Of a DNA stretch of 64,000 nucleotides, positions 3,334 to 29,009 are shown piece after piece (position 1 is the stretch's first letter; every line of letters begins with the position of its first letter). The notes under the pieces were generated by a model that made no database searches, had not been told where the DNA came from, and was given only the letters and a program-made list of their open reading frames with translations. The DNA lies in assembly GCA_965213685.1 (NCBI GenBank), contig CBDBZY010000031.1, forward strand, positions 1 to 64,000, given 5' to 3'. A program made the translations under genes and the position numbers. The stretch comes from a bacterium (GTDB lineage: Bacteria; UBA8248).

Positions 3334-3354
3334 GTCCGCCCTCCCTCTCCCGGC

Positions 3355-6409: not shown

Positions 6410-6461
6410 AATCTAGGGCAGGCGCCTTGCGGTGCGGGCCGCGCAAACGCGGGGAAATGCG
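6410..6461 (-). promoter_or_regulatory. Putative activator-dependent late promoter of head/tail islet
   Basis: Minus strand: CGCATTTCCC-CGCGTTTGCG-N26-TAGATT; same architecture at 19237-19288 and 28948-29009. Confidence 0.7.
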
Positions 6462-6665
6462 CACCGCGCGCCCGTTTGCGGAAAATTTCCGTTTTTCGTG
6501 TTTCTGCGTTTCCCGAAATGCGATACCATGCCGAGGCTATTCGGTTTGCGGAGGTTGGAGTGGACGGGCGCGGCGGCCTCGGCCGATTCGTCTGTCCCCC
6601 GAAAACTTTTCGAATCGTGCGCCATCGAGGCCGCCCCCGAGACGACGCGGACGAGGTTTCCTCTC

Positions 6666-7931
6666 ATGTGGGGTGCCGAGGCGACCATCTTGCAGTTCAT
6701 CCAGCGCCTGTCCTGGAGCCACGCGATCGACATCGGGATCATGTGGTTTCTGCTCTATCAGGTCTACATCCGCTTCAGAGGCACCCAGGCGATGCGCCTT
6801 CTCGTGCGCGTGTTCGTGGTGTGGCTCATCTATCTCGCCTCCCAGGCAGCGGGCCTGCACCTGACCTCGTTTGTGCTCTGGGCCATCTGGATCGCCGTGC
6901 TCATCTTGTTTCTCATCCACTTCCACGGGGAAATTCAAAAGATATTCTTTCAGCTCCACCCGCTGCGCAGACTCTCCGCCCTGTTGCGGCGGGCGATGCG
7001 CATCCGGCTGCCGGAGGAGAGCGTCATGACCATCGCCGGAGCCGCATTTTCCCTCATCGGCGGGCATCTGGGCGCCATCATCGTCCTGGAGCGCCGCGAT
7101 TCGACCGACGCGCTGCTGCGCAGCCCGGGCGAGGAGATCGCCGCAGACGTCCGGCCGGCGTTGCTGGAAACCATCTTCTTCAAGGGAACGCCCTACCACG
7201 ACGGCGCCGCCGTGATTCGCGAGAACAAGGTGTCCCGCGTGGGATGCCTCCTTCCCATCTCCGAGAACCCGGCCCTCCCGCCGGAGTTCGGCGCCCGCCA
7301 CAGGGCGGCGGTGGGCATCACCGAGCGTTGCGACGCCCTGGCGATCGTCATATCCGAGGAGCGGCAGGAGGTCACCTGCGTGGAGGGCGGCCACGTCAAG
7401 ACGACGGGGACGGAGGAGGAGCTCGCCTCCTGGCTCACCGCGCGCCTGCACGCGGCCCGCGAGGCGGCGCAAACGAGGAGCCGCATATCGCTGGAGCCCA
7501 TCCTGGAGAACTGGAAGCCCAAGCTCGCCGCCCTGTCCGCCGTCATCTTTCTCTGGGCACTCGGCGGGCAGGGACGCCAGAATCCGCAGAATTTTTTTCC
7601 GCAACTCGAAAGCAGGTCCGAGGAGGAGTTTCGGGTCCCCCTCCACTACTACAACCTTCCGGACGGCATCGCCCTCTCCGACGGCGCGGCGAGAAGCGTT
7701 CGCGTCCGGCTCCGGGGCGCGCGCGACCTCCTCCACTACATCGACGCCGCCCGCCTGCGCGTGAACGTGAACCTCGCCCAGATGACGCCCGGAGCGCATT
7801 CGCGCACGCTGTCGGGCCGCGACATCGACTTGCCGGGCGGGCTCGAATTCCTCGGCACCGATCCCGGCGCCATCCAGCTGACCCTCCGGAAAGCGGACGC
7901 GCCCGTGAAGCGGACGCCATCAGGCGAATAG
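6666..7931 (+). CDS. cdaA: Diadenylate cyclase CdaA-type with C-terminal YbbR/CdaR-like domain
   Basis: Three N-terminal TM helices, HDGA and G.RHRAA DAC motifs, SEE, extra TM then YbbR-like 'VRVRLRG' domain. Confidence 0.8.
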   Translation: MWGAEATILQFIQRLSWSHAIDIGIMWFLLYQVYIRFRGTQAMRLLVRVFVVWLIYLASQAAGLHLTSFVLWAIWIAVLILFLIHFHGEIQKIFFQLHPLRRLSALLRRAMRIRLPEESVMTIAGAAFSLIGGHLGAIIVLERRDSTDALLRSPGEEIAADVRPALLETIFFKGTPYHDGAAVIRENKVSRVGCLLPISENPALPPEFGARHRAAVGITERCDALAIVISEERQEVTCVEGGHVKTTGTEEELASWLTARLHAAREAAQTRSRISLEPILENWKPKLAALSAVIFLWALGGQGRQNPQNFFPQLESRSEEEFRVPLHYYNLPDGIALSDGAARSVRVRLRGARDLLHYIDAARLRVNVNLAQMTPGAHSRTLSGRDIDLPGGLEFLGTDPGAIQLTLRKADAPVKRTPSGE

Positions 7932-8070
7932 GAGCAAGGGGGGGGGGGGAGACGCGCGGCCCAACCTCCCCCCGGGAGCGGGCTCCCTCGACGCGCGGCG
8001 CCAGCGGGCGGGAGCTTGAGTTTTCCGGGGGGCGCGTTTTTTTCGGACGAGGCGCGCGCGCCGCAAAAAC

Positions 8071-8099
8071 TTGCTTTTTTTATGTCCAGGACCCATATT
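8071..8099 (+). promoter_or_regulatory. sigma70-like promoter
   Basis: TTGCTT-N17-CATATT. Confidence 0.4.
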
Positions 8100-8411
8100 G
8101 AATGACACGGAGGCGTGATCGACGACCGGGGCAAGAAGGAGGAAGCGGTATCGCCCGAAACTCCCACGCCGCATGAAGAGGGCTGAGGAGGGGAGCCGAC
8201 ATAGGCAGCGGCTCCGGGGCAGGAGAGTTCTCGAAGGGGGGAGGATGCGATGATATTCAGAATGAATCGCTTCACGCGCGCCGAGTTTCCAGCCTCCCCG
8301 GCCCACCGCATCAGCCGGGCGGGGAGGAAACCTCAAGGCTGATGCCCATGTCAAGGCGGCAAATCGCCTTTGCGAGGTGGGAGGAAGTCCCACCCGGAAG
8401 CGGAACCAAAG

Positions 8412-8445
8412 AGAGCGGGACGAAACGTCCCGCTCTTCTTTTTTT
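8412..8445 (+). terminator. Rho-independent terminator
   Basis: AGAGCGGGACG-AAA-CGTCCCGCTCT followed by T tract. Confidence 0.8.
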
Positions 8446-8656
8446 ACGGATTGCCGGCGGCCGGGGCCTGCGCCGCCAACTTCCGCATCTCGATCTCCAG
8501 CTGCTGCAGCCTGTTCTTGATCATGTTGAAGTCATACTCGAACCCCTCCGCGAGCAGCACCAGCCCCTGATACAGCCGATATTTCTCAGGCGCATCCGCC
8601 TCGCTCACCGAATCGCGCATCTCGACGAAAGCCTCTCTCGCATGATGAAAGCTCAA
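8444..8656 (-). CDS. Small hypothetical coiled-coil protein (70 aa)
   Basis: Protein-like composition, purine-rich RBS, ends at terminator. Confidence 0.55.
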   Translation of the reverse strand: MSFHHAREAFVEMRDSVSEADAPEKYRLYQGLVLLAEGFEYDFNMIKNRLQQLEIEMRKLAAQAPAAGNP

Positions 8657-8789
8657 ATCGCATCCCCCCTCTTCCCGGAATGGGCGCCCCGAAACGAAAA
8701 CTGTCTTGCGGGAGGAAATCCTACCCGCATCTCTGCTAGAATCAAGCGCGTCGACGAATCATCCATCACCCTTTCGAGGAGTCGCCTTC

Positions 8790-9284
8790 ATGCCGGAACG
8801 ACCGAACACGCCACAGGTCATCCTGCGGCACATCCAGGGCACCCAGCTGCAGATGCTGACCACCACGGGCAAGCACTCCTACGTGCTCGACGAGCCGGAG
8901 GCCCGCGGCGGCACGGACCTCGCCGCCACGCCGTTCGAGTTCTTCGTCGCGGGCCACGCGGGCTGAGGCCTCTACACGCTGCTGGGAGCGGCGAAGAGCA
9001 GGGGCATCCGCATCGACGACGTGGAGGTGCACGCGGAGTTCAAGCGCAACCTCTCGCCGAAGTTTCACCCGGATTTCCACGGGGACCCCGAGCGCAGAAA
9101 ATTGTCCATCGGCGTCATTCGCACGAACTATTACATTCACGGCGACGTCTCCGAGGAGCAGCGGGCGGAACTCCTGGAGGAGCTCGCGAACTGCCCCATC
9201 CACAACACGCTGGTGACGCCGCCGCAGCTGGAGGAGCGCATCGTCGTTCTGGAGAGAGACGAGCCCCCTCCCCGGGAAGCCTGA
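8790..9284 (+). CDS. OsmC/Ohr-family selenoprotein (Sec at UGA 8964-8966)
   Basis: DEP...GGTD..ATP.E...AG-UGA-G in frame with downstream ..CPIHNTL; UGA at first catalytic Cys; hairpin immediately 3'. Confidence 0.8.
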
Positions 9285-9384
9285 CGCCGGACGGAGGGGG
9301 GAGGGGGGCACTCCCCCCGGCGGGAAGCCTGACGCCGGACGGAGGGCGGGGGAGAGGGGGGGCGCGCTCCCCCCGGCGGGAAGG
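9273..9384. repeat. Intergenic tandem repeat (~48-56 bp period) with G/C hairpins
   Basis: CGGGAAGCCTGACGCCGGACGGAGGG at 9273 and 9321, partial third copy at 9377. Confidence 0.7.
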
Positions 9385-9451
9385 ACAGCCAGACGGGAGA
9401 CGGGAGGACGCGTCCCCTCCAAGGCGGACAACCACAATAAAGGAACGCACG

Positions 9452-10354
9452 ATGAAAATCGGATTTATCGGCCTGGGGAAGATGGGCGGCGGCATGGCGG
9501 CCAACCTCCAGAAAGCGGGCCATGCGCTCGTGGCACACGACATCGTCCGCGAGGCGGCCGCGGAGCATCTGGAGCGGGGCGCCCGCTGGGCGGATTCTCC
9601 CAAGGAGGTCGCCCGCGCGTGTGAAATCACCTTCACCTCGTTGCCGGGGCCAAAGGAGGTCGAGAGCGTCGCCACGGGTGCCGACGGCATCCTCGAGGGC
9701 ATCCGCGCGGGAGACGTCTACATCGACCTGAGCACGGGATACCCCGCCAGCGTCCGGAGCGTGTACGAAAAATTCTCGGACGCCGGCGCGCACATGATGG
9801 ACGCGCCCGTGAGCGGCTCCACCATCGGCGCGAAAACCGGACGCCTGGCGATCATGGCCGGCGGCGACAAGGACGTGTATGAGCGCTGCAAACCCGTCCT
9901 CGCGGCCATCGGGGATCGCCTCACCTACACGGGCGGGATCGGCAGCGGCACCATCTGCAAGCTCGCCCACAACTGCCTGGGCTACGGCATCCAGGCCATC
10001 GCGGCGGAATGCTACACCCTGGGCGTCAAGGCGGGAGCGGAACCCGGGGCGGTGGCGGAGACCATCCGCAACGGCGCCGTGGGCCGGGGCGTGCACTTTC
10101 ATTTCATCTTTCCCGAAACGTTCCTGAAGGGAAAATTCGACGCGCCCCACTTTCCCATGAAGGGCGCGGCGAAGGACGTGGGCCTCGCTCTCGCACTGGC
10201 CCGGGAGCACCAGGTGCCCATGACGATGGGCAACATCGCCTACCAGGAGCTCATCGCGGGACTCAACCGCGGATGGGGGGAGGATGACGCGAGACGCGCC
10301 ATGACGCTGCAGGAGGAGCGCGCGGGCGGCGTTTCCGTGAGAGTCCAAGAATAG
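9452..10354 (+). CDS. NAD(P)-dependent oxidoreductase, 3-hydroxyisobutyrate dehydrogenase family
   Basis: MKIGFIGLGKMG, DAPVSG, KLAHN. Confidence 0.9.
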   Translation: MKIGFIGLGKMGGGMAANLQKAGHALVAHDIVREAAAEHLERGARWADSPKEVARACEITFTSLPGPKEVESVATGADGILEGIRAGDVYIDLSTGYPASVRSVYEKFSDAGAHMMDAPVSGSTIGAKTGRLAIMAGGDKDVYERCKPVLAAIGDRLTYTGGIGSGTICKLAHNCLGYGIQAIAAECYTLGVKAGAEPGAVAETIRNGAVGRGVHFHFIFPETFLKGKFDAPHFPMKGAAKDVGLALALAREHQVPMTMGNIAYQELIAGLNRGWGEDDARRAMTLQEERAGGVSVRVQE

Positions 10355-10372
10355 CGCGAGGTCTGACACAGG

Positions 10373-11410
10373 ATGAAACACGGCATCGCCATGCTGCCGC
10401 CTGCGCCGGCGACCTACGCCCGCTGGTGTCGGCTCGCCGAGGAGGCGGGCTTCGACGTCATCTGGGTGCCGGACTCCCAGTCGCTCTACAGGGAGATGTA
10501 CGTCTCCTGTGCCGTCTGCGCCGCGAACACGTCGCGCGCGCTGCTGGGCCCCAACGTCACCAACCCGCTCACGCGGCACCCCGCAGCAGCCGCAAGCGCG
10601 ATCGCCACGGTGGACGAGCTATCCGGCGGGCGGGCGCTCTTCGGAATCGCCACGGGCGACAGCGCCGTCCTGAACCTGGGCCTGCGCCCCGGCCGGGTGG
10701 ACGATTTGCGGGAGTACGTCCTCGCCCTGCGGGGGATGCTCGAGGAGGGGGTCGGGCACTATCAGGGAAAATCCTGCGCCCTGGGCTGGCACCGAAAGCG
10801 CGTCCCCCTCTACATCGCCGCCGAGGGGCCGCGCACCATCCGGCTCGCGGGCGAGGTGGCCGACGGCGTCATCATCGGGACCGGCCTCACCCCGGAGGTG
10901 GTGGCGGATTCCCTCTCCTGGCTGGCCGACGGCGCCAGCGCATCGGGCCGCCGGGTGCGCGACCTCGACGTCTGGTGGCTGGTGAAGGCCCACGTGGGAG
11001 AAGACGGGGGGCGCGTCCGCGAGGAGATTCGCACCGCCCTCGCCGCGAGTGCGCACCACGCCTTTCGCTTCGCACTCGACGGCAGGCGGATTCCCCGGCG
11101 ATTCCTCTCCGCCGTCGAAACCCTCAAGAGGGAATACGCATTTCACGAGCACGAGATGATGGACAGACAGGCGAACGCGGAGCTCGTGGACAGGCTCGGC
11201 CTGCGGGAATACCTGCTGGATCGCTTCGCCATCGCCGGCACGCCCGCCGAATGCCGCGCCAGGCTGGAAAGCCTGCGGGCGATCGGCGTCGAGAACCTCA
11301 GAATTTCCGCCCACGTGCCCGATAAGCCCGCCTTCATCGAAACGTGGAGCCGCGAGGTGATGGGCGGGGGCGAAACCGCGCCAGCAGAGACAAAGAGGAC
11401 GCTTCCATGA
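10373..11410 (+). CDS. LLM-class flavin-dependent oxidoreductase (Mer-like)
   Basis: AEEAGFD, VTNPLTRHP, SGGRA..GI.TGDS, LAGEVADGV. Confidence 0.9.
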   Translation: MKHGIAMLPPAPATYARWCRLAEEAGFDVIWVPDSQSLYREMYVSCAVCAANTSRALLGPNVTNPLTRHPAAAASAIATVDELSGGRALFGIATGDSAVLNLGLRPGRVDDLREYVLALRGMLEEGVGHYQGKSCALGWHRKRVPLYIAAEGPRTIRLAGEVADGVIIGTGLTPEVVADSLSWLADGASASGRRVRDLDVWWLVKAHVGEDGGRVREEIRTALAASAHHAFRFALDGRRIPRRFLSAVETLKREYAFHEHEMMDRQANAELVDRLGLREYLLDRFAIAGTPAECRARLESLRAIGVENLRISAHVPDKPAFIETWSREVMGGGETAPAETKRTLP

Positions 11411-12409
11411 GACACGGCATCTCATTCCGCCCGCCCGACACGGACTCGTTCGCCCGCTGGTGCCGGTGCGCGGAGGAGGGCGGGTTTGACGCGGTCTTCA
11501 TCCCGGACTCCCAGTCCCTGTATCGGGAAGTGTATGTGTCGAGTGCGATATGCGCGATGCAGACGAGCGCCATCCTCTTCGGGCCGTGCGTCACCAACCC
11601 CCTCACGCGGCACCCGGCCGTGGCCGCGAGCGCAATCGCCACCATCAGCGAGCTATCCGGCGGCCGCGCCTTCTGGGGAATCGCCACGGGCGACAGCGCC
11701 GTCCTGAACCTGGGACTCAAACCCGCGCGGCTTGCGGACCTGCGCGAATACGTCCTCGCCGTGCGGGGAATGCTGGAGGAGGGGAGCGCCGCCTACAAGG
11801 GGGAAAACCAGCCGGCTGAGCTGGCACCGATCCCACGTGCCCATTCACATCGCCGCGGAAGGCCCCCGGACGCTGCGCCTGGCGGGAGAGGTGGCGGACG
11901 GGGTCATCATCGGAACCGGCCTCCTCCCCGAAGTCATCGGGGACACGCTGGGGTTCATCGACGAGGGCGCCCGGAAATCAGGCCGGACGGTGGAAGATCT
12001 CGACCTCTGGTGGCTGGCGGACGCCCACGTAGACGCCGATGGCGAACGGGCGAGAGAGGACATCCGCACCGCCCTCGCCGCGAGTGCGCACCACTCGTTC
12101 TCGTTCACGCTGGAGGGCAAGCGCGTCCCCGGCAGCCTGGAATCCGCGGTTCGCGCACTCCGGGACGGATACCGGACCGCAGAGCACGGCTTCATGGACA
12201 AATCGAACAACGCGGCGCTCGTGGACCGCTTCGGGCTCAGGGAATACCTGACAGATCGGTTTGCGATCGTCGGCACGCCCGCCGAATGCCGCAAGCGACT
12301 GGCGGCGCTGGAAAAGATGGGCGTGAGAGGATTGCGCATCAACAACAACCTGCCCGACCGGACCGCGTTCATGGACGCCTGGAGCCGGGACGTGCGGGAA
12401 ATCCGGTGA
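11407..12409 (+). CDS. LLM-class flavin-dependent oxidoreductase, tandem paralogue (apparent +1 G frameshift ~11800)
   Basis: ATGA overlap with upstream paralogue; removing one G in AAGGGGGAAAACC joins the halves collinearly with the paralogue. Confidence 0.85.
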
Positions 12410-12527
12410 ACGCCGCGCGGAACGGGGGGGGGGCATTCCCCCGGTGCGCGCGTTCGGGTAGAATGGAGAGAAGTTTTCGCCAGACCAGGCTTCGCGTCCC
12501 GCGACAGCCGCTCACAGGGGGGAGGGC

Positions 12528-13082: not shown

Positions 13083-13089
13083 TACGCGC

Positions 13090-14184: not shown

Positions 14185-14255
14185 GGGGGAGAGGCGAAAA
14201 CCAAGTGCAACCTCCCATGTTGGAGATGCTCGCTCCCCGGAGGCAGGAGTCCGGG

Positions 14256-14807
14256 TTAAGGTGCGACAGGGAGTTCGTGTGTCTGGATGACCTTGATTCC
14301 GAAGCGTTGCGCCAGCTCTTTCAGACCGTTGTCATCAGAGTAAATTGTATTTTGATTTCGGGCGAGAGCAACAGCAACAATTTGCCTGTCAAATTTGAGT
14401 TGTGCCTTGGTGCGTGGTGACGCGGATTTCCGTTCTTTGTTGTGATGTACCTTTCGGGTTACATCAACAAGCTTTCTAACAGCATTCGTATCAAAATCCG
14501 CAATCTGGAAATGTCGAGACTGATGCAACCTGGAGAGACATTCTTCTGTCCTTCCTTCTGGAACGGCAAAGAGCACTTCCGCCAATGCTGGCGTCGGGAT
14601 AACGATCGTCTCGGACTTTGCCTGTATATCCTGTATCAGGATATCCATCCGCTCCTTTATTTTGGCGAGCGGCTCCCCCGTGTCGGGGTCGGCGGGAGGC
14701 CTGGCGTCTGGCTGGACCAGTGGCAGGCGTCTCGCCCTCCACCCTCCCGACGGACAGCCGGAAGCGGCGGCGGCGCTCACCTCGCGGCGGCGGCGCCCCT
14801 CTAGCAT
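14256..14807 (-). CDS. PIN-domain protein (start uncertain, N-terminus possibly lost)
   Basis: IPTPALAEVL, KFDRQIVAVA, IYSDD; low GC. Confidence 0.7.
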   Translation of the reverse strand: MLEGRRRREVSAAAASGCPSGGWRARRLPLVQPDARPPADPDTGEPLAKIKERMDILIQDIQAKSETIVIPTPALAEVLFAVPEGRTEECLSRLHQSRHFQIADFDTNAVRKLVDVTRKVHHNKERKSASPRTKAQLKFDRQIVAVALARNQNTIYSDDNGLKELAQRFGIKVIQTHELPVAP

Positions 14808-15208
14808 TGGGGTTTAGTCATACCAAAAGACTTCCTAAAGTGCTTGAAATAAAATCCTTGTACGCTCGCAGCATAAAACGCGGCTTCAAAATAATCCTTT
14901 GTCCACCGTCCATTGGTGTGCTTCCATTTCTTTGGCAGGTGAACTTCCCGAGGCTTGCGCGGCGCGCGTAAAGTCTCCGGCGTCGCGCCGGCCGTGAAAA
15001 CATTCTTCATATCTTTGTCAACTTTCCTCTCGATCTCCTCCAGCCATTTTTGTCCACCTTCCACAGGCGGGCAGACAACGCGACACCAATGCCCCACCAA
15101 GCAAATCACCACGGGACTTTCTAGGGGCATCCGGTAATATTCCTCTTCCGCCCAAGCCCAAAGAGGGAGTGAGAACAGGAAAACGGCAACCGCGATTATG
15201 ATTTTCAT
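14801..15208 (-). CDS. Secreted hypothetical protein, three Cys (paralogue A)
   Basis: Signal peptide MKIIIAVAVFLFSLPLWAWA; C-x5-C-x3-CPP. Confidence 0.55.
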   Translation of the reverse strand: MKIIIAVAVFLFSLPLWAWAEEEYYRMPLESPVVICLVGHWCRVVCPPVEGGQKWLEEIERKVDKDMKNVFTAGATPETLRAPRKPREVHLPKKWKHTNGRWTKDYFEAAFYAASVQGFYFKHFRKSFGMTKPQC

Positions 15209-15228
15209 CTTAGGCACCCTTCTAGCGG

Positions 15229-15585
15229 TTAGCACGCGAATCTCATCTCCCGCAAAATTCCCAAAAACATAAGAGACAAAGTGGCTTTCGATATTTCGCG
15301 TATGCCTACCTTAAAAAGCAGAGCAGGTTGATTGGTGGTTGCCCCGTCTTCAAATTTAAAATCATACCGACTTGTTCGCAAAAATTTCGTGGCCGCCTCT
15401 GCCCATTCAGCCCGTCCTTTGTCAGGTGGGCAGAATATGTAACATTTACCCAGAGGCTCCCAGCACAACAACAATGGTCGGGATACGAATGTATCAGGTG
15501 GAGTTTTCAGGAAAGAAGGGGGTCGGTCCTCTCCCCACGCGGGCGCAGCGAACATCAAAACGGCAACCGCGAGTATGATTTTCAT
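15229..15585 (-). CDS. Secreted hypothetical protein, three Cys (paralogue B)
   Basis: Signal peptide MKIILAVAVLMFAAPAWG; C-x6-C-x3-CPP; GAGG RBS. Confidence 0.55.
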   Translation of the reverse strand: MKIILAVAVLMFAAPAWGEDRPPSFLKTPPDTFVSRPLLLCWEPLGKCYIFCPPDKGRAEWAEAATKFLRTSRYDFKFEDGATTNQPALLFKVGIREISKATLSLMFLGILREMRFAC

Positions 15586-15596
15586 TCGGTTTCCTC

Positions 15597-15746
15597 TCAG
15601 GTGCGGTCGGGGAAAATCAAGAAAGCAATGCCCGCCGTGATCAGCACGCAACCGGACAGCAGCAGCGAGGCGTCGATCAGGGCGGCGGCGCGATAACCCG
15701 CAATCGCCGCCAAAAACATGAGCGTTGTTGCATCGAATACGGGCAT
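15597..15746 (-). CDS. Small 49-aa membrane protein (below ORF-track cut-off)
   Basis: MPVFDATTLMFLAAIAGYRAAALIDASLLLSGCVLITAGIAFLIFPDRT; TGATG overlap with upstream ORF. Confidence 0.45.
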   Translation of the reverse strand: MPVFDATTLMFLAAIAGYRAAALIDASLLLSGCVLITAGIAFLIFPDRT

Positions 15747-16003
15747 CACCTTCTGACTTCAATGCCTCGTTCCCTCATAAGTTCGGCATAAGGGTCATGA
15801 ACGCCCTCGAACAACTTCAAACTTCTCATTTTATGAACGAATACATCGAGCGGCTCATCAATGGCCTCGTCCATTCGTATCGTATTTAACGTTTGACTAT
15901 CCTCAGAATATATTCCCCCCACACAGTTCGTATCTTCCTGTACTTCGCCACGGGAAATGGCTTCATCGGATACATCGTTATTCCCTTGGTCTTTACTGTT
16001 CAA
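15746..16003 (-). CDS. Hypothetical acidic protein
   Basis: TTG start after GGAGGAG; low GC. Confidence 0.45.
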   Translation of the reverse strand: MNSKDQGNNDVSDEAISRGEVQEDTNCVGGIYSEDSQTLNTIRMDEAIDEPLDVFVHKMRSLKLFEGVHDPYAELMRERGIEVRR

Positions 16004-16112
16004 TACTCCTCCTCCCCTCCAAAGAAGCACAATTATGCCTACAAACGGGAATTCTTGACAAGCGAGAAATTATCGCATCCGATAACAATAGGCAGGCCAC
16101 GCAGAGAAAGCC

Positions 16113-17486
16113 CTACCCGTCCAGGTTCATGCCGAACTGGCCCGCCATGTGGCCAAAGAGTTTGCCGGCGGCCTCGTCGCTCATCCAGCCGCGCCCGGTC
16201 GCCGTCTCCAGCGCACTACTCACGCGCAGGAGGGCCTGCGAGATTTTCTCGGTGTCGCGGACGGAGATTTCCGGCAAAACGGGGGAGACGCCCGAGCACA
16301 GCGGCCTCCTCGGGCAGCGCGCCCGCGCGGTGGGCTTCCTCGAGCTGCTTGTCGGCCATGGCCTGCAGAATATGACGCACGGTGCGCTGGCGCCTCGTCA
16401 TCTTCTTGAGGGTGGGCTGATCCATCGACTCCGCCGACGCGCGGTTCACGTCCTCTCCCTGGGCGAACCAGTGGGAGGGGACGCCCACGCCGCCCAAGAG
16501 CAGGCCCCGCATCAGCTTGGCGATGCCCTGGGCGCCCGCCTCGCCTCCCTTCAAATCGGGCGAGACGGCCCGCCACTCCTCTTTTTCATTATGCACGCGC
16601 ACGCTCGAGGGCTTGGGGGCGACGCCGTTCTCGGAGAGCCAGTCCGCGATTTTCTCCGGCCCCGCCCCCTTGAGGGTGACATCGTAGATGAAGCTGTTTT
16701 GCAGTCGGGCGCGCTCCACGGCGTCAAAGATGAAGCGCTCGTAGGAATCGATCCAGTCGATGGCGGCAAACAAATCGGAGGAGCCGCGGGCGGCGTCGCT
16801 CGATTTGTTGATCTGAAACAGGAACGCCTCCCCGTCTGCGAAGCGTTCGCGCTCCCTTTGGGCGGATGCGCTCAGATAGCCGCGCGGGTCGCCCCCCAGA
16901 ACCGTCCGGACCCTCTTGCCCTTCCGTCCCGCCCCGGCCCAGCCCGTCGGCGCGCAGGAGGACCCCGATGGGCAAGGCGCAGTTGTCCGGGTCCATCACC
17001 ACCTCCTCTATCAGCCGGGGGCTGACGTAGCCCAGGCGCACGCGCCCCTCGAACCGCGAGACGGCGACCGGCAGGAGGAGTTCGCCGAAGATGCCGAGCT
17101 CCGAGACCAGCCGCTCGAAGCGCAGGTCCATCTGGTTCACGGGGTCGCCCCAGAACGCCTTCACCGCGCGCAGCGCGCGATCATCCTCCGCGTGCCAGCT
17201 CACCCCCTCGCCCACGACGTGATCCGTCACGATCTCGATCAGGCGCTGGCCCATCAGGTTGGTGAGCCACAGATCATGCGCGAGGGACTGCATCCGCGCG
17301 TGGGCGTGGGGCGTGACGCTCCTGGCGCCCTCTCCCAGGGGACGCCAGACTCTCTCGTCAGGGTCTATGCCGGCGCTCAGCCGCCCGGTGTTGCGCGCGG
17401 ATGCGGCGCGGGCCCCGCTTCACCGGCGCCCCGGCGGCCGCCTTGCGCTTCGGGCTCTGCGCCCCCTTCGCATTCTCCATCCTCAT
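16113..17486 (-). CDS. Phage portal protein (three apparent +1 frameshifts at ~17412, ~16930, ~16293)
   Basis: ATGA-coupled to terminase; WRPL, N.MG.R.IE..TD.VVGEG, FGEL, RG.SDL, P.HWF..G.DVNRA; ~457 aa after repair. Confidence 0.75.
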
Positions 17487-18130
17487 CTCCTCCCGAGCAT
17501 TCGCCCGCCCCACTCTCGCGGCGCCACCGTCCCGCCGGCGATGGGGGCCAGAATTCCCTCGCTCCGCGCCAGGGACTCGGCCAGCCGCGCATAGGCGCAG
17601 GCGAAGCCGAAGTGATTCTCGTTGCGCTCATAGGCCAGGATCGTCTCCCCCGAGGAGCGGACGCGCGGCTTTTTCCTCAAGTTTCCCAGATGGCGCTCCA
17701 CCTCGGCGAGAAGCGCCTCCTCCCCGGCACTCCCCGGATGCGGCAACAACACCCGCCCGGCGCCCTGGTGAAACTCCTCCACGAGATGATCCAGAAGGTC
17801 CTCGCGGCTCATGCGCACGTGGCGGCGCGCGACCCCCAGAAACGAGACCTCCTTGGTCTGCATGGCGCCCTCGGTATGCCGCCAGATGAAGCCGCCGTCC
17901 GGGTGCAGGTCGTACACCCCCCTTGCGGCCTGGGTGTGGGGGCCGCCATCCACGACGAACGCCTCCACCCCCAGGTGTGCGAATATCGCGCGGCACCTGT
18001 GGATGAGCCGCTCGATGGGCGGGGCCTCAAAATAAATCCAGCGCACGGGCCGCCCCCGCTCATGCTCGCGCACCGCGAGGGCGCACACGTCCCCCGTATC
18101 GACCCCGCAGAAGCGATGGCGCGCGCTCAT
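17483..18130 (-). CDS. Terminase large subunit, nuclease domain ORF
   Basis: CGVDTGD, VVDGGP, ENHFGFA..Y; GGAGG-N7-ATG overlapping ATPase stop. Confidence 0.7.
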   Translation of the reverse strand: MSARHRFCGVDTGDVCALAVREHERGRPVRWIYFEAPPIERLIHRCRAIFAHLGVEAFVVDGGPHTQAARGVYDLHPDGGFIWRHTEGAMQTKEVSFLGVARRHVRMSREDLLDHLVEEFHQGAGRVLLPHPGSAGEEALLAEVERHLGNLRKKPRVRSSGETILAYERNENHFGFACAYARLAESLARSEGILAPIAGGTVAPREWGGRMLGRR

Positions 18131-19185
18131 GCGGGAACCTCCGCCAGCCGGTAGGGTGCGGTCGTGCGCAGCGTTTTGAGCAACTCCCCGGTGAGCGGCT
18201 GTGCGTCGCCCGCGTCGGGCATGGCGAGCGTGGAGCAACGAAACCGCGCCCTCTCGCTCGGAAGCCGGGCGGCGGCCCACTTCGCCGCGACCCGGTGCAG
18301 GCGAACCGCCCCGACCCCGAGTTGAGAGAGGCGGTAGCTCCTGTCGCGCCGACCCGGCCGCGCGGCCCGCCAGACGCCCGCTCCCCTGTCGAGAGGCCCG
18401 CCGCAGCCCGGACAGGCCAGGGCCGCCGAACGCAGGATTCCCGGCCAATGCTCCTCGGGAACGCTCTGCGCGCGACAGGCCGGGCACCTCAGGTGCCAGT
18501 GCCTTTGGTCTCCCTCCTCATACATCGCGTGGATGCCGGCTCCGGGGGTTCGTCCCATCGCGAGGTTCAGCGTCAGGGCGAGCGGGGAGGCGTCGATTCG
18601 ATCGTTCGACCACTTGAGGTTCTCGGGCGGGAGGTCGTCCACCTCGTCGCGGATCAGGATGTCGAGCGGGAGCGATATGGCGTTGCCCACGTCCCGAAGA
18701 CCAAGTATGTAAAGAAACCGCGACCCCCCGGGACCGGGGAATTCCTTGAGGCCCTTGGGGGACGCGCCCCTGTATTTTCCATCACGCATGGTCTGGGCGA
18801 TCGCTCCGCTCCGAATCGCCGGGCGCACGCGCGTCTGGTCGAAGCGGTCGGCGAAATCCTGATCGGGCAAAAAATAGCCCACGTTCAGGCGGCGGACGAT
18901 GACGGCGTACAGCGCCAGGCCTATCGCGAGCGTGGTCAGGCCGACCTGGGCGCCCTTCAGGATGCTGATGGTTTGATCGGGGATGCGATTCCGGAGGACG
19001 GCGTCGAGTGCGGCGGTGAGCTCGATGAGCGCCTCGCGGCCCTCAAACGTGAACGCCCCTCCCTCGGTGGACATCTCGCTCGTCAGAAAACGCGCCAGCC
19101 CGGGGGCTTCGACCGAGAAGCGCGACGGCTTGCCGACCGCCAGAACGATGCTGGGCGTATGCATGATCTTCCGGGATTTGCGCAA
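18127..19185 (-). CDS. Terminase large subunit, ATPase domain (GpA-like)
   Basis: Walker A KGAQVGLT, Walker B ILIRDEVD, GDQRHW..CPAC...CPGC. Confidence 0.85.
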   Translation of the reverse strand: MRKSRKIMHTPSIVLAVGKPSRFSVEAPGLARFLTSEMSTEGGAFTFEGREALIELTAALDAVLRNRIPDQTISILKGAQVGLTTLAIGLALYAVIVRRLNVGYFLPDQDFADRFDQTRVRPAIRSGAIAQTMRDGKYRGASPKGLKEFPGPGGSRFLYILGLRDVGNAISLPLDILIRDEVDDLPPENLKWSNDRIDASPLALTLNLAMGRTPGAGIHAMYEEGDQRHWHLRCPACRAQSVPEEHWPGILRSAALACPGCGGPLDRGAGVWRAARPGRRDRSYRLSQLGVGAVRLHRVAAKWAAARLPSERARFRCSTLAMPDAGDAQPLTGELLKTLRTTAPYRLAEVPA

Positions 19186-19236
19186 CCCTGCGACTCCTCC
19201 GTCCCGAGGACGCCGCGCGCATCCTCACGGGGGAGG

Positions 19237-19288
19237 AATATAGAAGGGGGAGAGGGTGGGCCACGCCGCGCAAATGCGGGGAGATGCG
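19237..19288 (-). promoter_or_regulatory. Putative activator-dependent late promoter of terminase/portal islet
   Basis: Minus strand: CGCATCTCCC-CGCATTTGCG-N26-TATATT. Confidence 0.7.
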
Positions 19289-19298
19289 CGCCTCCAGC

Positions 19299-20472: not shown

Positions 20473-21762
<1,290 letters not shown>

Positions 21763-23762: not shown

Positions 23763-24029
23763 ATCCAAGCCTCCCGAGGCTGCAGGGCATAGTATACACC
23801 ACCCGCTCCCCCGCCCGGAAAGCTCCTCCCTCCTGTTCGCGTTCGGTTGCCGGAAAGCGGCGCTTTCGCCCGGCGCCATCTCCCGGGGGGCGCGGCGGCG
23901 CCCACGCGCCGGCAGCCCGTCAGACGCGCGGGGAGGCACTCGATGGCGGCCCCCCGCCAGGCGGAACAACCCGCCCGACCACCCGTCAAACCAGCGCAGC
24001 AGGAAATCCCCCCGGGAGGCGGAGATTTC

Positions 24030-25775
24030 CTATTGCGCGGGGATCACCGGAAGCAGCACGTGGGAGGGATGCGCCGGCCCTGTGTGCAGCGTGACGCTTC
24101 CGCCAAACAGGGAGGTCGGCCTGTCCTCCTTGAGGTCGTGCTTGAAGGGGCCTACGCCGTAGTAGACGCGGCCCGATATTTTCGGGGCGGAAGGCTCGTA
24201 GCCGGGCCAGACGTAATCGCGCCCCCGCACGCTGAGTGCGAGGCGGTATCCCCTCGGCACCACGATGCTCGTGGGCCATATCTCCACGTCGAGTGCGTAT
24301 ATCTCGCCGGGCGTCAGGGGTTGCGCCTCGTCGTGTGCGTGATAGGGCCTGTAGGGTAGCGTGAGGGACGGGTCGAGCTTTCTGTGCGAGGCGCGCAGCC
24401 AGCCGATGGCCACGGGCGTGTGCGGGTCGTTCGAACCGCGATAGAGGACTTCCGTCATGTCCGGAGAGAAGACGCGCAGGACGAGGAACAGGTCGGCATC
24501 CTCCGTGTCCGAGGAGACGAACAGCCTGGCCGCGACGGGGCCGGTGATCTCGGTTTCCGCCTCCAAGGGGGGCGAGAGGTAGGTGAGGCCGTCCCCCAGT
24601 GCCTCATAGCGCTTGGCGCGCTCGTTGCGCTGCGGGTCCGTCCGCAGGGTGCCCGAGCCGGAGTGCAGGTAATACTTCGTCCACCGCGTGCGCGCGATGG
24701 GCCATTCGTCCTCGCCGCGCGCGACGAACCTCTCTCCCGGGTGGCGCACCTGCAGCAGCACCCTCGGCTGCTCCTCCCAGCCCGTGTCCTCCCCCTTCAG
24801 GAAATGGCCGAAGAATTTCTTCTGTAGCCCCACGCCGTAGTCGGTGTAGAAATGCGTGAAATGCTCGAGTCCGTGCATCTCCAGCCATTTCTGCCCGGTG
24901 GCCGAGCGGACGAAGCCCTCCGTGTTCCCCCTCGGGTGGAGTCCCACGCCGCCCCAGTTGCCCGCCGAGAGGAGCGGCACGTTGATTTTCGAGAAATCCG
25001 GCATCCGCGCCCGCCAGTAGTCGTCATCGAGCGGATGCGCGAGGATGTCCCGGCCGTAGTCGCTCCTGTTCGCGGCGAGTTCCTCCTCGGTGAGGTTCGA
25101 GGGGCCGGATATCCAGTCCCCGTTCAGCCTGCTCTTGATGCCGCGCGCACCCTTGCCGTGCTGGCGGGGAACGACGGCCTCGCGGTACCACGTCTCGCCG
25201 AAGCGGCAGGCGATGCCCCCGTGGTAGCCCATGTCGCGGTAGAAATCGGCCGCCCCCTCCCAAACGCACATCGCCGCCAGGTGCGGCGGCTGCAGCGCGG
25301 CCACCTGCCACTGGTTCATCCCGTAGTAGGAGATGCCGTTCAGTCCCACCTTCCCGTTGCTCCAGGGCTGCGTCCCCGCCCATTCGATGCAGTCGTAAAA
25401 GTCCCTGGCCTCGCGGGGCGACCACACGTCGAGATACCCGGGCGAGCGGCCCGCGCCCCGCGAATCCACCCGCACGCAGGCGTAGCCGTCGGGCACCCAC
25501 TTCTCGGGGTCCACGAGCTCCCAGTTCTGGTACTTGTTGGTCGTGCCCATGACGGTCTCGGGATAGTCGTTCACCATCAGGTGCCACTGGTGGGGATACC
25601 CATCCTGCAAATGGAGCCACTTCGCGTATGGGCCGTAGCTCATGATGACGGGATGCCTCCCCTCCCCGACGGGGCGATAGACGTCGCAGCGCAGCACCAC
25701 GCCGTCGTCCATCTCGACCGGCACGTCCCAGTCGATGCGCATCCCGTCCCTCGTCTCGCTCTTGTACTCGCTCAT
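24030..25775 (-). CDS. CocE/NonD family hydrolase
   Basis: DGVVLRCDVYRP, DSRG.G.SPG, WSNGKVG..GISY, GWLRASHR. Confidence 0.9.
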   Translation of the reverse strand: MSEYKSETRDGMRIDWDVPVEMDDGVVLRCDVYRPVGEGRHPVIMSYGPYAKWLHLQDGYPHQWHLMVNDYPETVMGTTNKYQNWELVDPEKWVPDGYACVRVDSRGAGRSPGYLDVWSPREARDFYDCIEWAGTQPWSNGKVGLNGISYYGMNQWQVAALQPPHLAAMCVWEGAADFYRDMGYHGGIACRFGETWYREAVVPRQHGKGARGIKSRLNGDWISGPSNLTEEELAANRSDYGRDILAHPLDDDYWRARMPDFSKINVPLLSAGNWGGVGLHPRGNTEGFVRSATGQKWLEMHGLEHFTHFYTDYGVGLQKKFFGHFLKGEDTGWEEQPRVLLQVRHPGERFVARGEDEWPIARTRWTKYYLHSGSGTLRTDPQRNERAKRYEALGDGLTYLSPPLEAETEITGPVAARLFVSSDTEDADLFLVLRVFSPDMTEVLYRGSNDPHTPVAIGWLRASHRKLDPSLTLPYRPYHAHDEAQPLTPGEIYALDVEIWPTSIVVPRGYRLALSVRGRDYVWPGYEPSAPKISGRVYYGVGPFKHDLKEDRPTSLFGGSVTLHTGPAHPSHVLLPVIPAQ

Positions 25776-26051
25776 GGCTCGCCTTTCCGGAAGAAGGGAA
25801 ACCGATCTGGACGATGCGTTCAGGAATGCGAAAATATATCCGACCACGCGCGCCCCGTCCAGGCCGGACGCCTCCCGGAGGCGAAACGCTGGGAGTGGGA
25901 AGAAAATGACGCGACGATTCCTTCCCCAAAACCTTACCGGAGAGGATGCGCAACGCTTTCTTTCATTGTGGCGGGGCGATAGGGGCGTGATTCCTGGGGT
26001 TGTGGTTTCGGCACCCGCGCGTCAGCGGAGGCAATCCGCGGGAAGTCGCTC

Positions 26052-26321
26052 TTACGTGTTGCGCTTCAAGCTATCGTGACCGCCTATGCGGCGCAGTGTA
26101 ATTTCGTCGTTTTCCCGCCAAAATGTCGCGCGGCACCCTTGGGTGATCCTCATGTACCAGACATACTTGCCTTCACGCATTTGTCCTAGCTTGCCGATTT
26201 TCAGAGAATTGTGTCCCGGGTTTTCACACAACAATCGTATTTGCTTTCTCGCGGCGTCCTGTATCTCGGGAGGGAGTTTCCTGAAATCTCGATCGAAACT
26301 TGATAAGCTAGAGAGTTTCAT
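26052..26321 (-). CDS. RelE/ParE-superfamily toxin
   Basis: F.RDFRKL...NP.H.SL...RIT...R..F...LRRIG.HD. Confidence 0.75.
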   Translation of the reverse strand: MKLSSLSSFDRDFRKLPPEIQDAARKQIRLLCENPGHNSLKIGKLGQMREGKYVWYMRITQGCRATFWRENDEITLRRIGGHDSLKRNT

Positions 26322-26336
26322 CCAGCATCATGCGCA

Positions 26337-26624
26337 TCACAAAGAGGCCAAAAGTTCGTCCACGGAATCGTAAGACTGAAGCCTTCCCGCTCTGTGATCT
26401 TCATCCGCCTCATCTTCCATGGCCTGCCATTCATCGGAATAAAACCAGGGAGGCTCTCTTTTCGTGCTGACGTCCATAGTATCCGCCTGCTCATAAGCAG
26501 GCGGGACAGTCTGTTGGGTTTGTGAAGCCTCGGGAATCCAACAAACCACCAAGGCCGGCGGCGATGTTTCCACCAACAGGCTCCAATAATCGTTTTTGAC
26601 GGTGGTCGCCGCACCCCCGTACAT
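26337..26624 (-). CDS. Putative antitoxin
   Basis: C-terminal WFYSDEWQAMEDEADED..AGR..SYDSVDELLASL; directly upstream of toxin. Confidence 0.65.
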   Translation of the reverse strand: MYGGAATTVKNDYWSLLVETSPPALVVCWIPEASQTQQTVPPAYEQADTMDVSTKREPPWFYSDEWQAMEDEADEDHRAGRLQSYDSVDELLASL

Positions 26625-26637
26625 AGCTCGCTCCACG

Positions 26638-26946
26638 TCAGGTTGAAGTCTGCTTTCGTTGCTCTGTAATTTGCATTGTATCCGGGAAAAACTTTCGACC
26701 CGTGGCCCTCTCGGCTTCCACAATTTGCCTCAACAGCATCATGGCCGTATCCGCCGCAACCTTCATGGGCAACATGACCTCGCCGACCACATGAGTTTTT
26801 TGGGTCTGTGGGCGCAATTGGGCGAATGACAAAATAATTCCTATATCCGCATTCGTCACCGCCCGGACAAAATCCGCAAAGGGGATATCCTTGTCTGCGT
26901 CCAAAACAAGAGGCCTCGCATCCTGTTGCTTGTCCTGGTTGTTCAT
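26638..26946 (-). CDS. DUF3467-like hypothetical protein
   Basis: FAD.V....IILSFAQ...V.LP...A......QI...E...G pattern; first gene of low-GC TA islet. Confidence 0.5.
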   Translation of the reverse strand: MNNQDKQQDARPLVLDADKDIPFADFVRAVTNADIGIILSFAQLRPQTQKTHVVGEVMLPMKVAADTAMMLLRQIVEAERATGRKFFPDTMQITEQRKQTST

Positions 26947-27164
26947 CAGCGCGAATACACTCCTTCGGAGCGACAAGAAATTTTACCTTCCTTGAATCCG
27001 TGGCGGCCAGAAAGCATCACTGCGATATTAGCAAACAACAAAGCCACGCGCCAACTATAACATATCCCCTACCCGGAAATTAACGCTGGCGCTTCTCGCG
27101 CCGAATGCGTGCTGATCCTCGCCCGCTCGGAAACCGGAACTCCTCGCCCGCTCGGAGTTCATCC

Positions 27165-27707
27165 TCAAACCCGCTCCTCCAGGGCGCGGGCCGCCTCCAC
27201 CGTGAGTTCCTGCAGTTTCGCCAACACCTCCGGGTGGGCGTGAAGCGACTCGCGCACCTCCCGCAAGATCGCCCCCTTCGCCGCCGCGAACCCGTCCTCG
27301 TATTCCAGACGGAGGCGCTCGGCCGATATGCGGGTGCGCTCCAGGGCGTTCACCATCCGGGCCAGGGTCTCGGGCGTGAGGTCATCGAAGGACTCCCGCT
27401 TCATCTGCGAGATCGCCTCGACCGCCTGCGTCATCAGCATCCGCCGCGCGGCCGCCGCCACCTTCTCGACCGGGTCCCGCCCCCGGCCGTCATACGCCAG
27501 CATCTCCCCGATCAGCTCGTCCACCATGGCCTCCACCCGCCTGCTCTTGCGGATGCCATCGCGCAGCCTGTCGTTCCGCTCGCCGACGGAGGAGAGGCAT
27601 ATATTCTCCGCCGTCGCCTCCCCGCAGGCCCGCCCCGCCCGCCGGGGGGTCTTCCCGCCACCGGCGCCGGCGATTCTCGCCCTGCGCCCTCCTCCTGCGG
27701 CCATCAC
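27165..27707 (-). CDS. Mu gp27/DUF3486-like protein (candidate small terminase)
   Basis: I.LSSVG motif, helical body, C-terminal HPE....L; GTGA overlap with gp26-like gene. Confidence 0.55.
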   Translation of the reverse strand: MMAAGGGRRARIAGAGGGKTPRRAGRACGEATAENICLSSVGERNDRLRDGIRKSRRVEAMVDELIGEMLAYDGRGRDPVEKVAAAARRMLMTQAVEAISQMKRESFDDLTPETLARMVNALERTRISAERLRLEYEDGFAAAKGAILREVRESLHAHPEVLAKLQELTVEAARALEERV

Positions 27708-28036
27708 AACTCTCCCACGAGGATGTCGGGTGCGGAGGAAACCGTTCCCTCGAGCAGGCCCCGCCCCTTGCGGGAGAGGTGTACCTCATAGTCCGTCAGC
27801 AGGCGCCCGAACCCCTCCGGGGTGTGTTTCTCCAAAAAGCCCCGGGCGGCGAGATCCTCCACGAACGCCTCTATCGTCTCGCGGCCAATGGGCGCGCCAT
27901 CCTCATGGTGGCCCGCCTCGCGCAGCGCGCTCCACAGCAGAAGGCTGCCCACCGGGGATTGGTCATGAAAGGCTCCCTGGTAATAGAGCGTCTTCAATAT
28001 GTCGCCGCGAAGAACGCGGGCCGCCAACTCGTTCAC
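27704..28036 (-). CDS. Mu gp26-like winged-helix protein
   Basis: R..ILK.L, L..RGFL, V.LS.KG..LLEG....P.I; GGAGG RBS. Confidence 0.6.
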   Translation of the reverse strand: MNELAARVLRGDILKTLYYQGAFHDQSPVGSLLLWSALREAGHHEDGAPIGRETIEAFVEDLAARGFLEKHTPEGFGRLLTDYEVHLSRKGRGLLEGTVSSAPDILVGEL

Positions 28037-28212
28037 GATGATATACCTCCCGGGTAGCTGTCATGATATGAGGCGTCTCCCGCGGACGAGGGCGGACGCC
28101 GCGCCGCGTGAGAGGCCGCCCCCGCCCCGATATGCGCCGGGTTCGGCGAGGCCTTGAGAGCCTTGAGAAAAAAGCGCCGCCGACGCACAATGGGGGCGAG
28201 GAGGATGCCCCG

Positions 28213-28614
28213 ATGCCCGCAGCCGCCCTGAGAGCCGCCATCGGCGCCGTCTTTGCGCTGTGGTTCGCGTGCCTGCCCGCGCCGCCGGCGCTTGGCCACG
28301 GGGAGGAGGAAATCCTCCTGTTCACCTATCTGGCGGAGGAGCCCAACCTTCTGAGAATCTCGACAGCTGTCGTGGGCGGCATCATCCTGGCGATGGGATT
28401 CTTCATCACCTTCCAGTCGCGCGCCCAGGCGAGAGCGGAGAGGGGATCGGACTCCCGCATTTTCCGGCTGATGGCACCGGGCGTCATCATCACGGGCCTG
28501 GGCGTCGTCATACTGCTCACGGCCGCCTTCGTTTTGCCCGACCGCCTCACCGTCGTGCACGATCATCCCCTGCACCGCGCCGAGAGGGACGCCCGGCAGG
28601 GCGGAGGACACTAA
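28213..28614 (+). CDS. Hypothetical membrane protein
   Basis: Signal-like segment plus two TM helices. Confidence 0.6.
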   Translation: MPAAALRAAIGAVFALWFACLPAPPALGHGEEEILLFTYLAEEPNLLRISTAVVGGIILAMGFFITFQSRAQARAERGSDSRIFRLMAPGVIITGLGVVILLTAAFVLPDRLTVVHDHPLHRAERDARQGGGH

Positions 28615-28703
28615 AAAAGCCCCCCGCCCGTCCACCGCGCGCGCGCGGCGTCGTCGCGCCGGCTTCCCGTCCCAGGCCCGGAAACGCCTGGAAGGGCACC
28701 ACC

Positions 28704-28871
28704 TCAATGGGCGCCGTCGCTCGCCGAGACGAGACCCACGCCCGCCAACGCGCCCAGAAGGTCCTGAATCGCCATCACGTCCATCCCCCCGCCGTAGACC
28801 TTCGCGACCAGCGAGAGGAGACTCGCTCCCAGAACCAGATAGCCGGTGACCGTCGTCTTGGGATGATGCAT
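28704..28871 (-). CDS. Small two-TM holin-like protein (55 aa)
   Basis: MHHPKTTVTGYLVLGASLLSLVAKVYGGGMDVMAIQDLLGALAGVGLVSASDGAH; KTT..G and GL..A.D; GGAGG RBS. Confidence 0.55.
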   Translation of the reverse strand: MHHPKTTVTGYLVLGASLLSLVAKVYGGGMDVMAIQDLLGALAGVGLVSASDGAH

Positions 28872-28947
28872 TCTCAATTCCTCCATGAAGGGAGAAGACG
28901 CGCCCGGCACGGAGCGCGCCCGGAGGCGGTGCGCCTCCACGGGCAGC

Positions 28948-29009
28948 ACCCTATCCGCTGGCGGGGCGATGCCGATGGCGGAAAACGCGGGGGATTGCGG
29001 GAAGGTGCG
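28948..29009 (-). promoter_or_regulatory. Putative activator-dependent late promoter of holin islet
   Basis: Minus strand: CGCACCTTCC-CGCAATCCCC-CGCGTTTTCC-N26-TAGGGT. Confidence 0.6.

Follow-up and report, generated by a model that had tools for sequence, protein, structure and literature searches.

The late promoters of phage Mu, shared by several late operons, have a −10 element, no usable −35 element, and an upstream site for the activator C, a dyad that overlaps the −35 region; Mor serves the middle promoter. The late promoters of P2 and P4 carry an element near −55, the inverted repeat TGT-N12-ACA, and their small activator, Ogr/Delta, contacts RNA polymerase. The upstream (UP) element of σ70 promoters is A+T-rich, lies at about −40 to −60, and is contacted by the α subunit. 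Here we describe a promoter motif ahead of phage-derived head, packaging, and tail operons in an uncultured bacterium. It was noticed in the first 64,000 nucleotides of contig CBDBZY010000031.1 of assembly GCA_965213685.1 (the window), and the operons that it precedes resemble those of a gene transfer agent (GTA).

Dispersed GTA loci under common control have been described in other lineages. According to two reports on the Rhodobacter capsulatus element (RcGTA), its structural cluster and the loci for head spikes, tail fibre, lysis, and maturation are switched on together, and GafA is the direct activator, which binds upstream of the structural-gene promoter (PMC6363796, PMC9638019); GafA binding is reported for a single 50-bp probe taken from the promoter of the structural cluster (PMC6363796). 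For the GTAs of Caulobacter crescentus (CcGTA; GafY, IHF, and anti-termination by GafZ) and Bartonella (BaGTA), a domesticated cluster with accessory loci and dedicated regulators is described (PMC11150451, bioRxiv 10.1101/2024.11.20.624540). In the literature consulted, GTAs are known from few lineages, not all of which have an identified direct regulator.

The window and the genomes compared

The window forms the start of contig C31 in a 71-contig assembly with a completeness of 94%. The assembly is mixed: 49 contigs (3.07 Mb) with about 65% G+C represent the window's organism (genome G000), and the 22 others (4.9 Mb, G+C 0.33 to 0.54, e.g., C64, C18, and C41) come from at least one further genome. 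The host is an uncultured Nitrospinota-like bacterium, and comparisons were made with 22 sister genomes of the genus and with more distant records.

A tandem-repeat motif ahead of the head, packaging, and tail operons

The original prediction, made from the window's sequence, held that three separated phage islets (capsid, terminase, and "holin") share one promoter architecture with an identical spacer and no good −35 element. All three strings are present on the minus strand: CGCATTTCCC-CGCGTTTGCG-N26-TAGATT at the capsid site (6461-6410), CGCATCTCCC-CGCATTTGCG-N26-TATATT at the terminase site (19288-19237), and CGCACCTTCC-CGCAATCCCC-CGCGTTTTCC-N26-TAGGGT at the "holin" site (29009-28948). 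The spacer measures 26 nt at each, and the 28-mers of the capsid site (6438-6465) and the terminase site (19265-19292) agree at 25 of 28 positions, as had been claimed. A scan for σ70-type −35/−10 pairs found no promoter at any of the three window sites, which bears out the lack of a good −35 element.

The promoters consist of a −10 element (TAnATT), no −35 element, and two head-to-tail 10-bp units, CGCATTTSCC (three at the lysis promoter), which end 26 nt upstream of the −10 element. Exact and mismatch searches with the 21-nt consensus GCGCATYTCCCCGCRTTTGCG over all 71 contigs gave 3 exact matches, none with 1 to 3 mismatches, and 17 with 4. A position-weight matrix was built from 58 sites of relatives; it holds about 37 bits of information over 25 positions, with 1.3 to 1.4 bits at each of the invariant C and G positions. 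When the 3.07-Mb high-G+C part of the assembly was scanned, three sites scored 33.1 to 36.1 bits, the next match reached 14.3 bits, and the reversed genome, which served as the control, gave a maximum of 11.4 bits. The recurrence of the motif is far beyond chance.

The three strong sites precede the protease-capsid gene, the large terminase gene, and a set of tail-tip genes on contig C58, and no copy is found elsewhere in this genome. The C58 site (28667-28687, plus strand) is followed by 25 nt and TATATT, so that the distance from motif to −10 element is 26 nt at the three window sites and 25 nt at C58. A genome-wide matrix scan had been expected to turn up sites before the missing tail genes, and it found exactly one further site, the one before the C58 tail-tip module. 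The window sites, in the coordinates of the consensus matches where these apply, are as follows.

6462-6442 (motif), 26-nt spacer, 6415-6410 (TAGATT), minus strand: head-operon promoter, 33.1 bits
19289-19269 (motif), 26-nt spacer, 19242-19237 (TATATT), minus strand: packaging-operon promoter, 35.1 bits
28948..29009, minus strand: remnant of a lysis-cassette promoter, a degenerate three-unit copy of the motif with a 26-nt spacer and TAGGGT

We regard the finding as real and biologically meaningful: the scattered operons of a domesticated phage particle system are linked by a private promoter class. Genes of the system are found at four or more distinct locations, with housekeeping genes in between. 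Both the matrix scan and the footprints at orthologous positions described below support the claim that a single conserved architecture is common to the islets' promoters and that the islets act as a regulon.

A sigma-54 promoter was considered and rejected by eye, the spacing of GG and GC being unfit. A stem-loop lies 3′ of the −10 element of the TerL promoter (window 19190-19230, minus strand; alignment columns 101-123), and two of its base pairs have changed in a compensatory way across 21 sequences. By eye, the other promoters (capsid, tail, and lysis) also have stem-loops of this kind behind the −10 element, as do the mosaic repeats described below.

Conservation and inheritance

The capsid, TerL, and tail genes are each present as a single copy in 20 of the 22 sister genomes, and the gene for a 110-aa protein in 19; all four are missing from one pair of genomes, G009 and G010. 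Capsid identity to relatives is 79 to 84%. Conservation in orthologous loci, which the original prediction had expected, is nearly complete: motif and −10 element are kept at the capsid gene in 19 of 20 loci of the genus (a contig end cuts the 20th), at TerL in 21 of 21, and at the tail genes in 21 of 21. The upstream flanks and most of the spacer vary at all three promoters, and the motif and the −10 element are constant. In more distant records, whose capsids are 67 to 76% identical, the capsid promoter has two 10-bp-phased units, 27 nt, and TAGATT or TACATT; the half-sites of other genera (loci L064, L066, L067, and L069) read CGAATTT or CGCAATT, and in three of the more distant records the capsid gene adjoins the same cdaA-like gene.

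The window from 1 to 38 kb is collinear with 420 to 472 kb of the related genome G020, host genes and islets alike. Between these two genomes, the ratio of nonsynonymous to synonymous divergence (dN/dS) is 0.16 to 0.25 for the phage-derived genes (0.16 for the protease-capsid gene and 0.23 for the TerL nuclease), with synonymous divergence (dS) of 0.52 to 0.71; the corresponding ranges for four neighbouring host genes are 0.11 to 0.32 and 0.44 to 0.77. The joint absence from G009 and G010, the synteny, the host-like dS, and the low dN/dS fit a GTA-like element whose promoters form a class of their own. Vertical inheritance of a GTA with its host entails that its genes keep their position, diverge as host genes do, and stay under purifying selection, and all three are seen here. 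To judge from the sequences compared, the system is old, vertically inherited, and under selection, and it has a cis-element of its own.

Genes behind the promoters

The window islets and C58 together hold the full set of phage-derived head, packaging, and tail genes that is expected of a GTA. The head-tail operon contains the following genes.

4269..6311, minus strand: prohead protease/major capsid fusion, 680 aa (PF25209, 1.1e-43; phrog_4523, major head and protease, 2.8e-51)
3355-4065, minus strand: 236-aa protein of unassigned function
2824-3333, minus strand: HK97 gp10-like neck protein (PF04883, phrog_5)
2298-2852, minus strand: 184-aa protein of unassigned function
987-2126, minus strand: tail tube (PF18906, phrog_290)

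The order of the genes behind the capsid gene (987..4065) is the same in relatives and in other genera. The second islet encodes packaging functions.

18127..19185, minus strand: large terminase, ATPase part, 352 aa (PF05876, 4.4e-18; phrog_675, 9.5e-52)
17483..18172, minus strand: large terminase, nuclease part, in another frame and overlapping the ATPase open reading frame (ORF), from translation
16110..17419, minus strand: portal gene (phrog_10963), in three frames in the window

The 352-aa ATPase reading frame is kept in 20 of 22 relatives, and the two-frame layout of TerL, with the ATPase followed by the nuclease (17483-19185), recurs in G020; the product is either two polypeptides or one made by a programmed frameshift. 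The portal gene is intact in G020 (498 aa). Its frame in the window is broken by three single extra bases (16303, 16936, and 17410), each by a GGCC; removing them leaves a frame open for 503 aa. Contigs of three runs lack these bases, and over 7.9 kb two of the three runs show no other difference from the window. A reading of the portal as a frameshifted pseudogene was dropped on the evidence of these contigs, and the breaks probably reflect errors of assembly or a variant in the sample that was assembled. Matches of the islets to Mu-type Pfam families stayed below their cut-offs, at 19.4 versus 20.1 bits for gpT and 25.6 versus 28 bits for gp27.

Downstream of the C58 site lie a gene for a 536-aa protein (phrog_8610), one for a 403-aa protein, and, farther on, one for a 665-aa tape-measure-like protein. 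The 403-aa protein has look-alikes in Atlas at 0.95 to 0.97, namely, viral clusters and Phage-tail_3/TipJ clusters, in which 20 to 45% of the members contain PF13550 (Phage-tail_3). Two of the tail proteins were searched against 50,697 phage records, and neither had a match. The first tail-tip gene (C58 28819-30429) is a single 536-aa ORF here and two overlapping ORFs (residues 1-289 and 284-536) in 20 of 20 relatives; the single frame could be a fusion or an assembly indel.

The annotated genes between the islets are housekeeping genes (DUF520, ammonium transporter, cyclase, peptidase S15, diadenylate cyclase, and monooxygenases). A second luciferase-like monooxygenase paralogue (11392-12451, plus strand) is split over two frames and has a single frame in G020. 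Adjoining the portal gene is a 1.9-kb insert of low G+C content (14192-16095, about 54%), not found at the G020 counterpart, with a PIN-domain gene (14256-14813) and two paralogous small secreted proteins; in a related strain (run X4), 993 bases of the insert are skipped and 425 other letters stand instead.

Lysis site and small-terminase operon

The third site of the original prediction, named for a putative holin, stood in part. It has 5 mismatches to the 21-nt consensus, scores below 8 bits with the matrix, and precedes an unrelated 55-aa ORF. We count the degenerate site as a member of the class on the strength of its orthologues alone: at the corresponding position, relatives have good three-unit sites. 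Such sites, orthologous to the lysis promoter, occur in 18 relatives, typically as CGCATCACCC-CGCAGTTGCC-CGCATTTTCC with equal spacer length and TAGAAT or a variant. With the degenerate copy included, 19 of 20 retrieved loci that bear the system show the site, and it is present in neither G009 nor G010. The features of this region are listed here.

28704..28871, minus strand: 55-aa hydrophobic ORF behind the degenerate promoter, the "holin" of the original prediction (from translation)
27704-28036, minus strand: 110-aa conserved protein in the small-terminase islet
27165-27707, minus strand: small-terminase-like protein (phrog_426, terminase small subunit, 9.7e-07; PF11985, Mu gp27, below the cut-off)

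In G020 the lysis site is followed by genes for a 49-aa membrane protein, a DUF1508 protein, a PF00959 lysozyme (9.5e-11), and a PF11351 GTA_holin_3TM protein (3.1e-11). A tblastn search of the window's assembly with these four cassette proteins gave no match, and a PF11351 family search of this genome gave none either, with a control that matched nowhere. One weak PF00959 match (25.5 bits) on contig C10 adjoins isocitrate dehydrogenase and PGA_cap genes, and no motif is found there. The 55-aa ORF has no Pfam family and is unlike both the 49-aa membrane protein and the 3TM holin of G020. Lysis genes for release, a further mark of GTAs, are thus present in G020 and were not found in this genome. 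In G010, which lacks the particle genes, a remnant of the lysis-operon leader and of the small membrane gene is recognisable and the motif is absent, which suggests secondary loss of the system.

The small-terminase operon has a motif promoter upstream in 17 of 20 loci; it is missing in G000, G019, and G007, and the alignment suggests a deletion of about 28 nt here. In this region, contigs from two independent runs do not differ from the window, and we therefore take the losses to be real for this strain. The system in this genome is incomplete, with the lysis cassette not found and the small-terminase site lost. The claim that the system is maintained holds for the genus, where dN/dS is 0.16 to 0.25, and must be qualified here, where the "holin" promoter has also degenerated. 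In many relatives, the small-terminase leader (L171-L181) contains one to three tandem copies of a unit of about 75 nt, each with a Shine-Dalgarno sequence and a short ORF that begins at GTG and ends in a stop codon overlapping the start of the ORF after it.

Motif copies in sister genomes

Counts in the sister genomes were made with a 19-mer of the motif at up to 2 mismatches, with the reversed pattern as control. The 19-mer occurs 38 to 138 times in 19 of 22 relatives, and the control 0 to 1 times per strand; counts are low in G009 and G010 (1 and 6), in G019 (5), and in the window's genome (3). A motif common at intergenic sites, which the original prediction had named as evidence against itself, is therefore what most sisters show and what this genome does not.

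Sampling of 40 regions around the listed places with 0 and 1 mismatch in G020 gave 73 non-redundant sites. The pattern nAnnnT lies exactly 27 nt past the 19-mer at 51 of the 73, and any other offset from 10 to 49 at 7 or fewer. The −10 sequence differs between promoter sub-classes in G020, and the geometry does not. Among the 57 sites with a −10 element at offset 26 to 28, 46 have the A+T-rich core CCCCGTGAATTTATC within 420 nt downstream. A plausible ORF lies within 300 nt at 8 of the 57; four of these are the system's own operons, and the remaining four are all more than 200 nt from the site. An initial ORF search at the relatives' sites, under a strict filter, had likewise found few ORFs downstream. 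No conserved host regulon is visible among the motif copies. Because the fixed −10 spacing is kept and no host genes follow, we read the sister-genome copies as an extension of the promoter class rather than as a refutation of it.

Most copies belong to mosaic elements, which are intergenic, measure about 230 to 470 bp, and number dozens per genome; in each, two promoters of motif and −10 element converge on the A+T-rich core. An example from G020 (among L076-L115) is given here.

L102, 1557-1823: mosaic element, core CCCCGTGAATTTATCGA with 10-bp-phased ATTTATCGA boxes

Several recurring sequence classes stand behind the −10 elements of the repeats, some with a hairpin and a T-run right after. 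Rfam assigned no family to seven mosaic-repeat loci, and its one subthreshold match was unrelated to the repeats. The window's genome contains none of these elements: a search turned up a single match to the core, at chance level, and none of the downstream sequences specific to the classes.

Regulator and alternative explanations

We think it probable that these are the promoters of a domesticated, phage-derived, GTA-like particle system and that a dedicated activator binds the tandem units and fires the dispersed operons together. A sequence-specific protein of this kind would bind both units on one face of the helix and recruit RNA polymerase, which by itself could not use promoters that lack a −35 element. 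For a start site about 7 nt downstream of the −10 element, the units would span about −58 to −40, centred near −45 and −55, and would lie one helical turn upstream of the would-be −35 element. The head, packaging, and tail operons, and in relatives the small-terminase and lysis operons as well, would then be transcribed together and particles would be produced.

Several observations weigh against this proposal. The genomes compared are all related, so the comparisons are not independent of one another. Searches of the whole assembly at E ≤ 0.01 gave 0 matches to Mor/C (PF08765), with a control that matched in 1 of 14 genomes, and 0 to the Ogr/Delta zinc finger (PF04606). The 110-aa protein is the sole small nonstructural protein of the islets; its predicted fold has a predicted local distance difference test score (pLDDT) of 61, and it was not found in G001, although G001 has the promoters. 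With no recognisable lysis cassette and no small-terminase motif, particle making or release may have ended in this organism. In 19 of 22 sisters, the factor would have a wider role than the control of particle operons, with 38 to 138 motif copies per genome and, in the G020 sample, 46 of the 57 sites with a −10 element in mosaic repeats. Moreover, base-exact spacing like this typifies sigma factors more than it does separate activators. As a candidate activator, the 110-aa protein is a weak lead only, with its low-confidence fold and subthreshold matches: Pfam returned nothing even at E ≤ 5, a PDB profile search nothing meaningful, and Atlas only unnamed clusters at 0.9 and above, with winged-helix families below threshold at 0.85 to 0.87.

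A sigma-like factor is the main rival. An alternative sigma, phage-derived or from the host, would read the motif directly as the upstream element of a bipartite promoter, and the near-invariant distance between motif and −10 element (26, 26, 26, and 25 nt in this genome and one offset at 51 of 73 sites in G020) is what such a factor would impose, as is a −10 element that varies by promoter sub-class while the geometry stays constant. The distance itself speaks the other way: the proximal unit stands 27 nt from the −10 element, about 10 nt beyond any −35/−10 spacing known for the σ70 family. The −10 hexamers also resemble ordinary σ70 −10 elements. Matches to Sigma70_r4_2 number 3 in G000, 3 in G009, 3 in G010, and 2 in G007, and since these counts are alike, no extra extracytoplasmic function (ECF)-type sigma tracks the system, although a divergent phage sigma would escape this search. 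On balance we consider direct reading by a sigma factor unlikely.

Improbable, in our view, is a general host promoter class, under a global regulator or with a UP-element-like α contact, into which the phage operons were merely wired. The 38 to 138 copies in 19 of 22 sisters, against 0 to 1 in the control, would suit such a class, and so would the predicted position, as UP elements and class I activators act around −58 to −40. Against it, the genome studied here has no copy outside the three operons, G019 has 5 copies, and G009 and G010 have 1 and 6; in G020, only 4 of 57 sites have a non-system ORF within 300 nt, all of them more than 200 nt off. The motif's roughly 37 bits, with invariant G+C-rich positions, are also unlike the A+T-rich UP elements. 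One further explanation raised by the repeats is that a mobile mosaic repeat carrying the motif, and similar to a miniature inverted-repeat transposable element (MITE), was inserted upstream of the operons by chance and that the motif has no regulatory role. Most of the relatives' copies do lie in repeats of about 230 to 470 bp with the motif inverted at both sides of an A+T-rich core, but this genome keeps the motif at its operons without having such repeats, the operon sites sit at orthologous positions in every genome that bears the system and, with altered half-sites, in other genera, and copies resemble one another only in the motif and the −10 element. By eye, repeat similarity runs past the motif, which is therefore not the terminus of the element. 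A role as terminal inverted repeat of a MITE was rejected for the operon sites in view of their orthologous positions and the repeat-free genome, and we find chance insertion scarcely credible.

One extension can be put forward tentatively, as a possibility that we would still call doubtful: the predicted activator or sigma-like factor may define the private promoter class of a new Nitrospinota-like GTA family, a class that in most sisters was taken over by the mosaic elements or spawned them. If so, cells that switch on particle production would also transcribe about 50 dispersed elements, and these might be selfish passengers that take advantage of particle production, decoys that draw the activator away, or marks that influence which DNA is packaged.

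The motif has practical uses. A sharply defined cis-element flags the dispersed operons from sequence alone and offers a direct handle for capture of the regulator by DNA-affinity methods, and the half-site variants of other genera could help to find a binding protein that co-varies with them. The genomes form a natural series for the keeping and loss of such a system: full system with mosaic repeats, system without repeats, system losing its lysis genes, and no system.

Comparison with known systems

The original prediction drew on the Mu late promoters, but membership of the window promoters in the Mu C system is not supported. The window promoters share with those of Mu a −10 element and the lack of a functional −35 element; their site, however, is made of two or three direct repeats with a 10-bp period that lie wholly upstream of the −35 position, rather than of a dyad over it, and no PF08765 or PF04606 protein was found in the assembly. 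Because no Mor/C homologue was found, the analogy with Mu is functional only. The P2/P4 element differs in a similar way, the window element being a direct repeat with no Ogr/Delta protein found in the assembly to go with it. The position of the motif fits a UP element, and its composition does not.

The system is a candidate for a new GTA family in an uncultured lineage. A search of the open-access literature, with subscription journals and supplementary files outside its scope, found no GTA-like element described for Nitrospinota or sponge symbionts. In CcGTA and BaGTA, accessory loci elsewhere are reported to be coordinated with a domesticated phage cluster, which resembles what we propose for the present system; those systems rely on anti-termination in long clusters, in contrast to the short operons with their own promoter copies found here.

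RcGTA is likewise composed of phage-derived particle genes in separate loci; these are switched on together, as is predicted here, and relatives of the window's organism carry PF11351, "GTA_holin_3TM," beside a lysozyme. The window system belongs to another lineage, even its core genes for head, packaging, and tail are spread across several loci, and a defined tandem-repeat motif stands at a fixed distance from the −10 element at the operon starts. By analogy, we propose that the predicted activator would tie these operons together as GafA ties together the dispersed loci of RcGTA.

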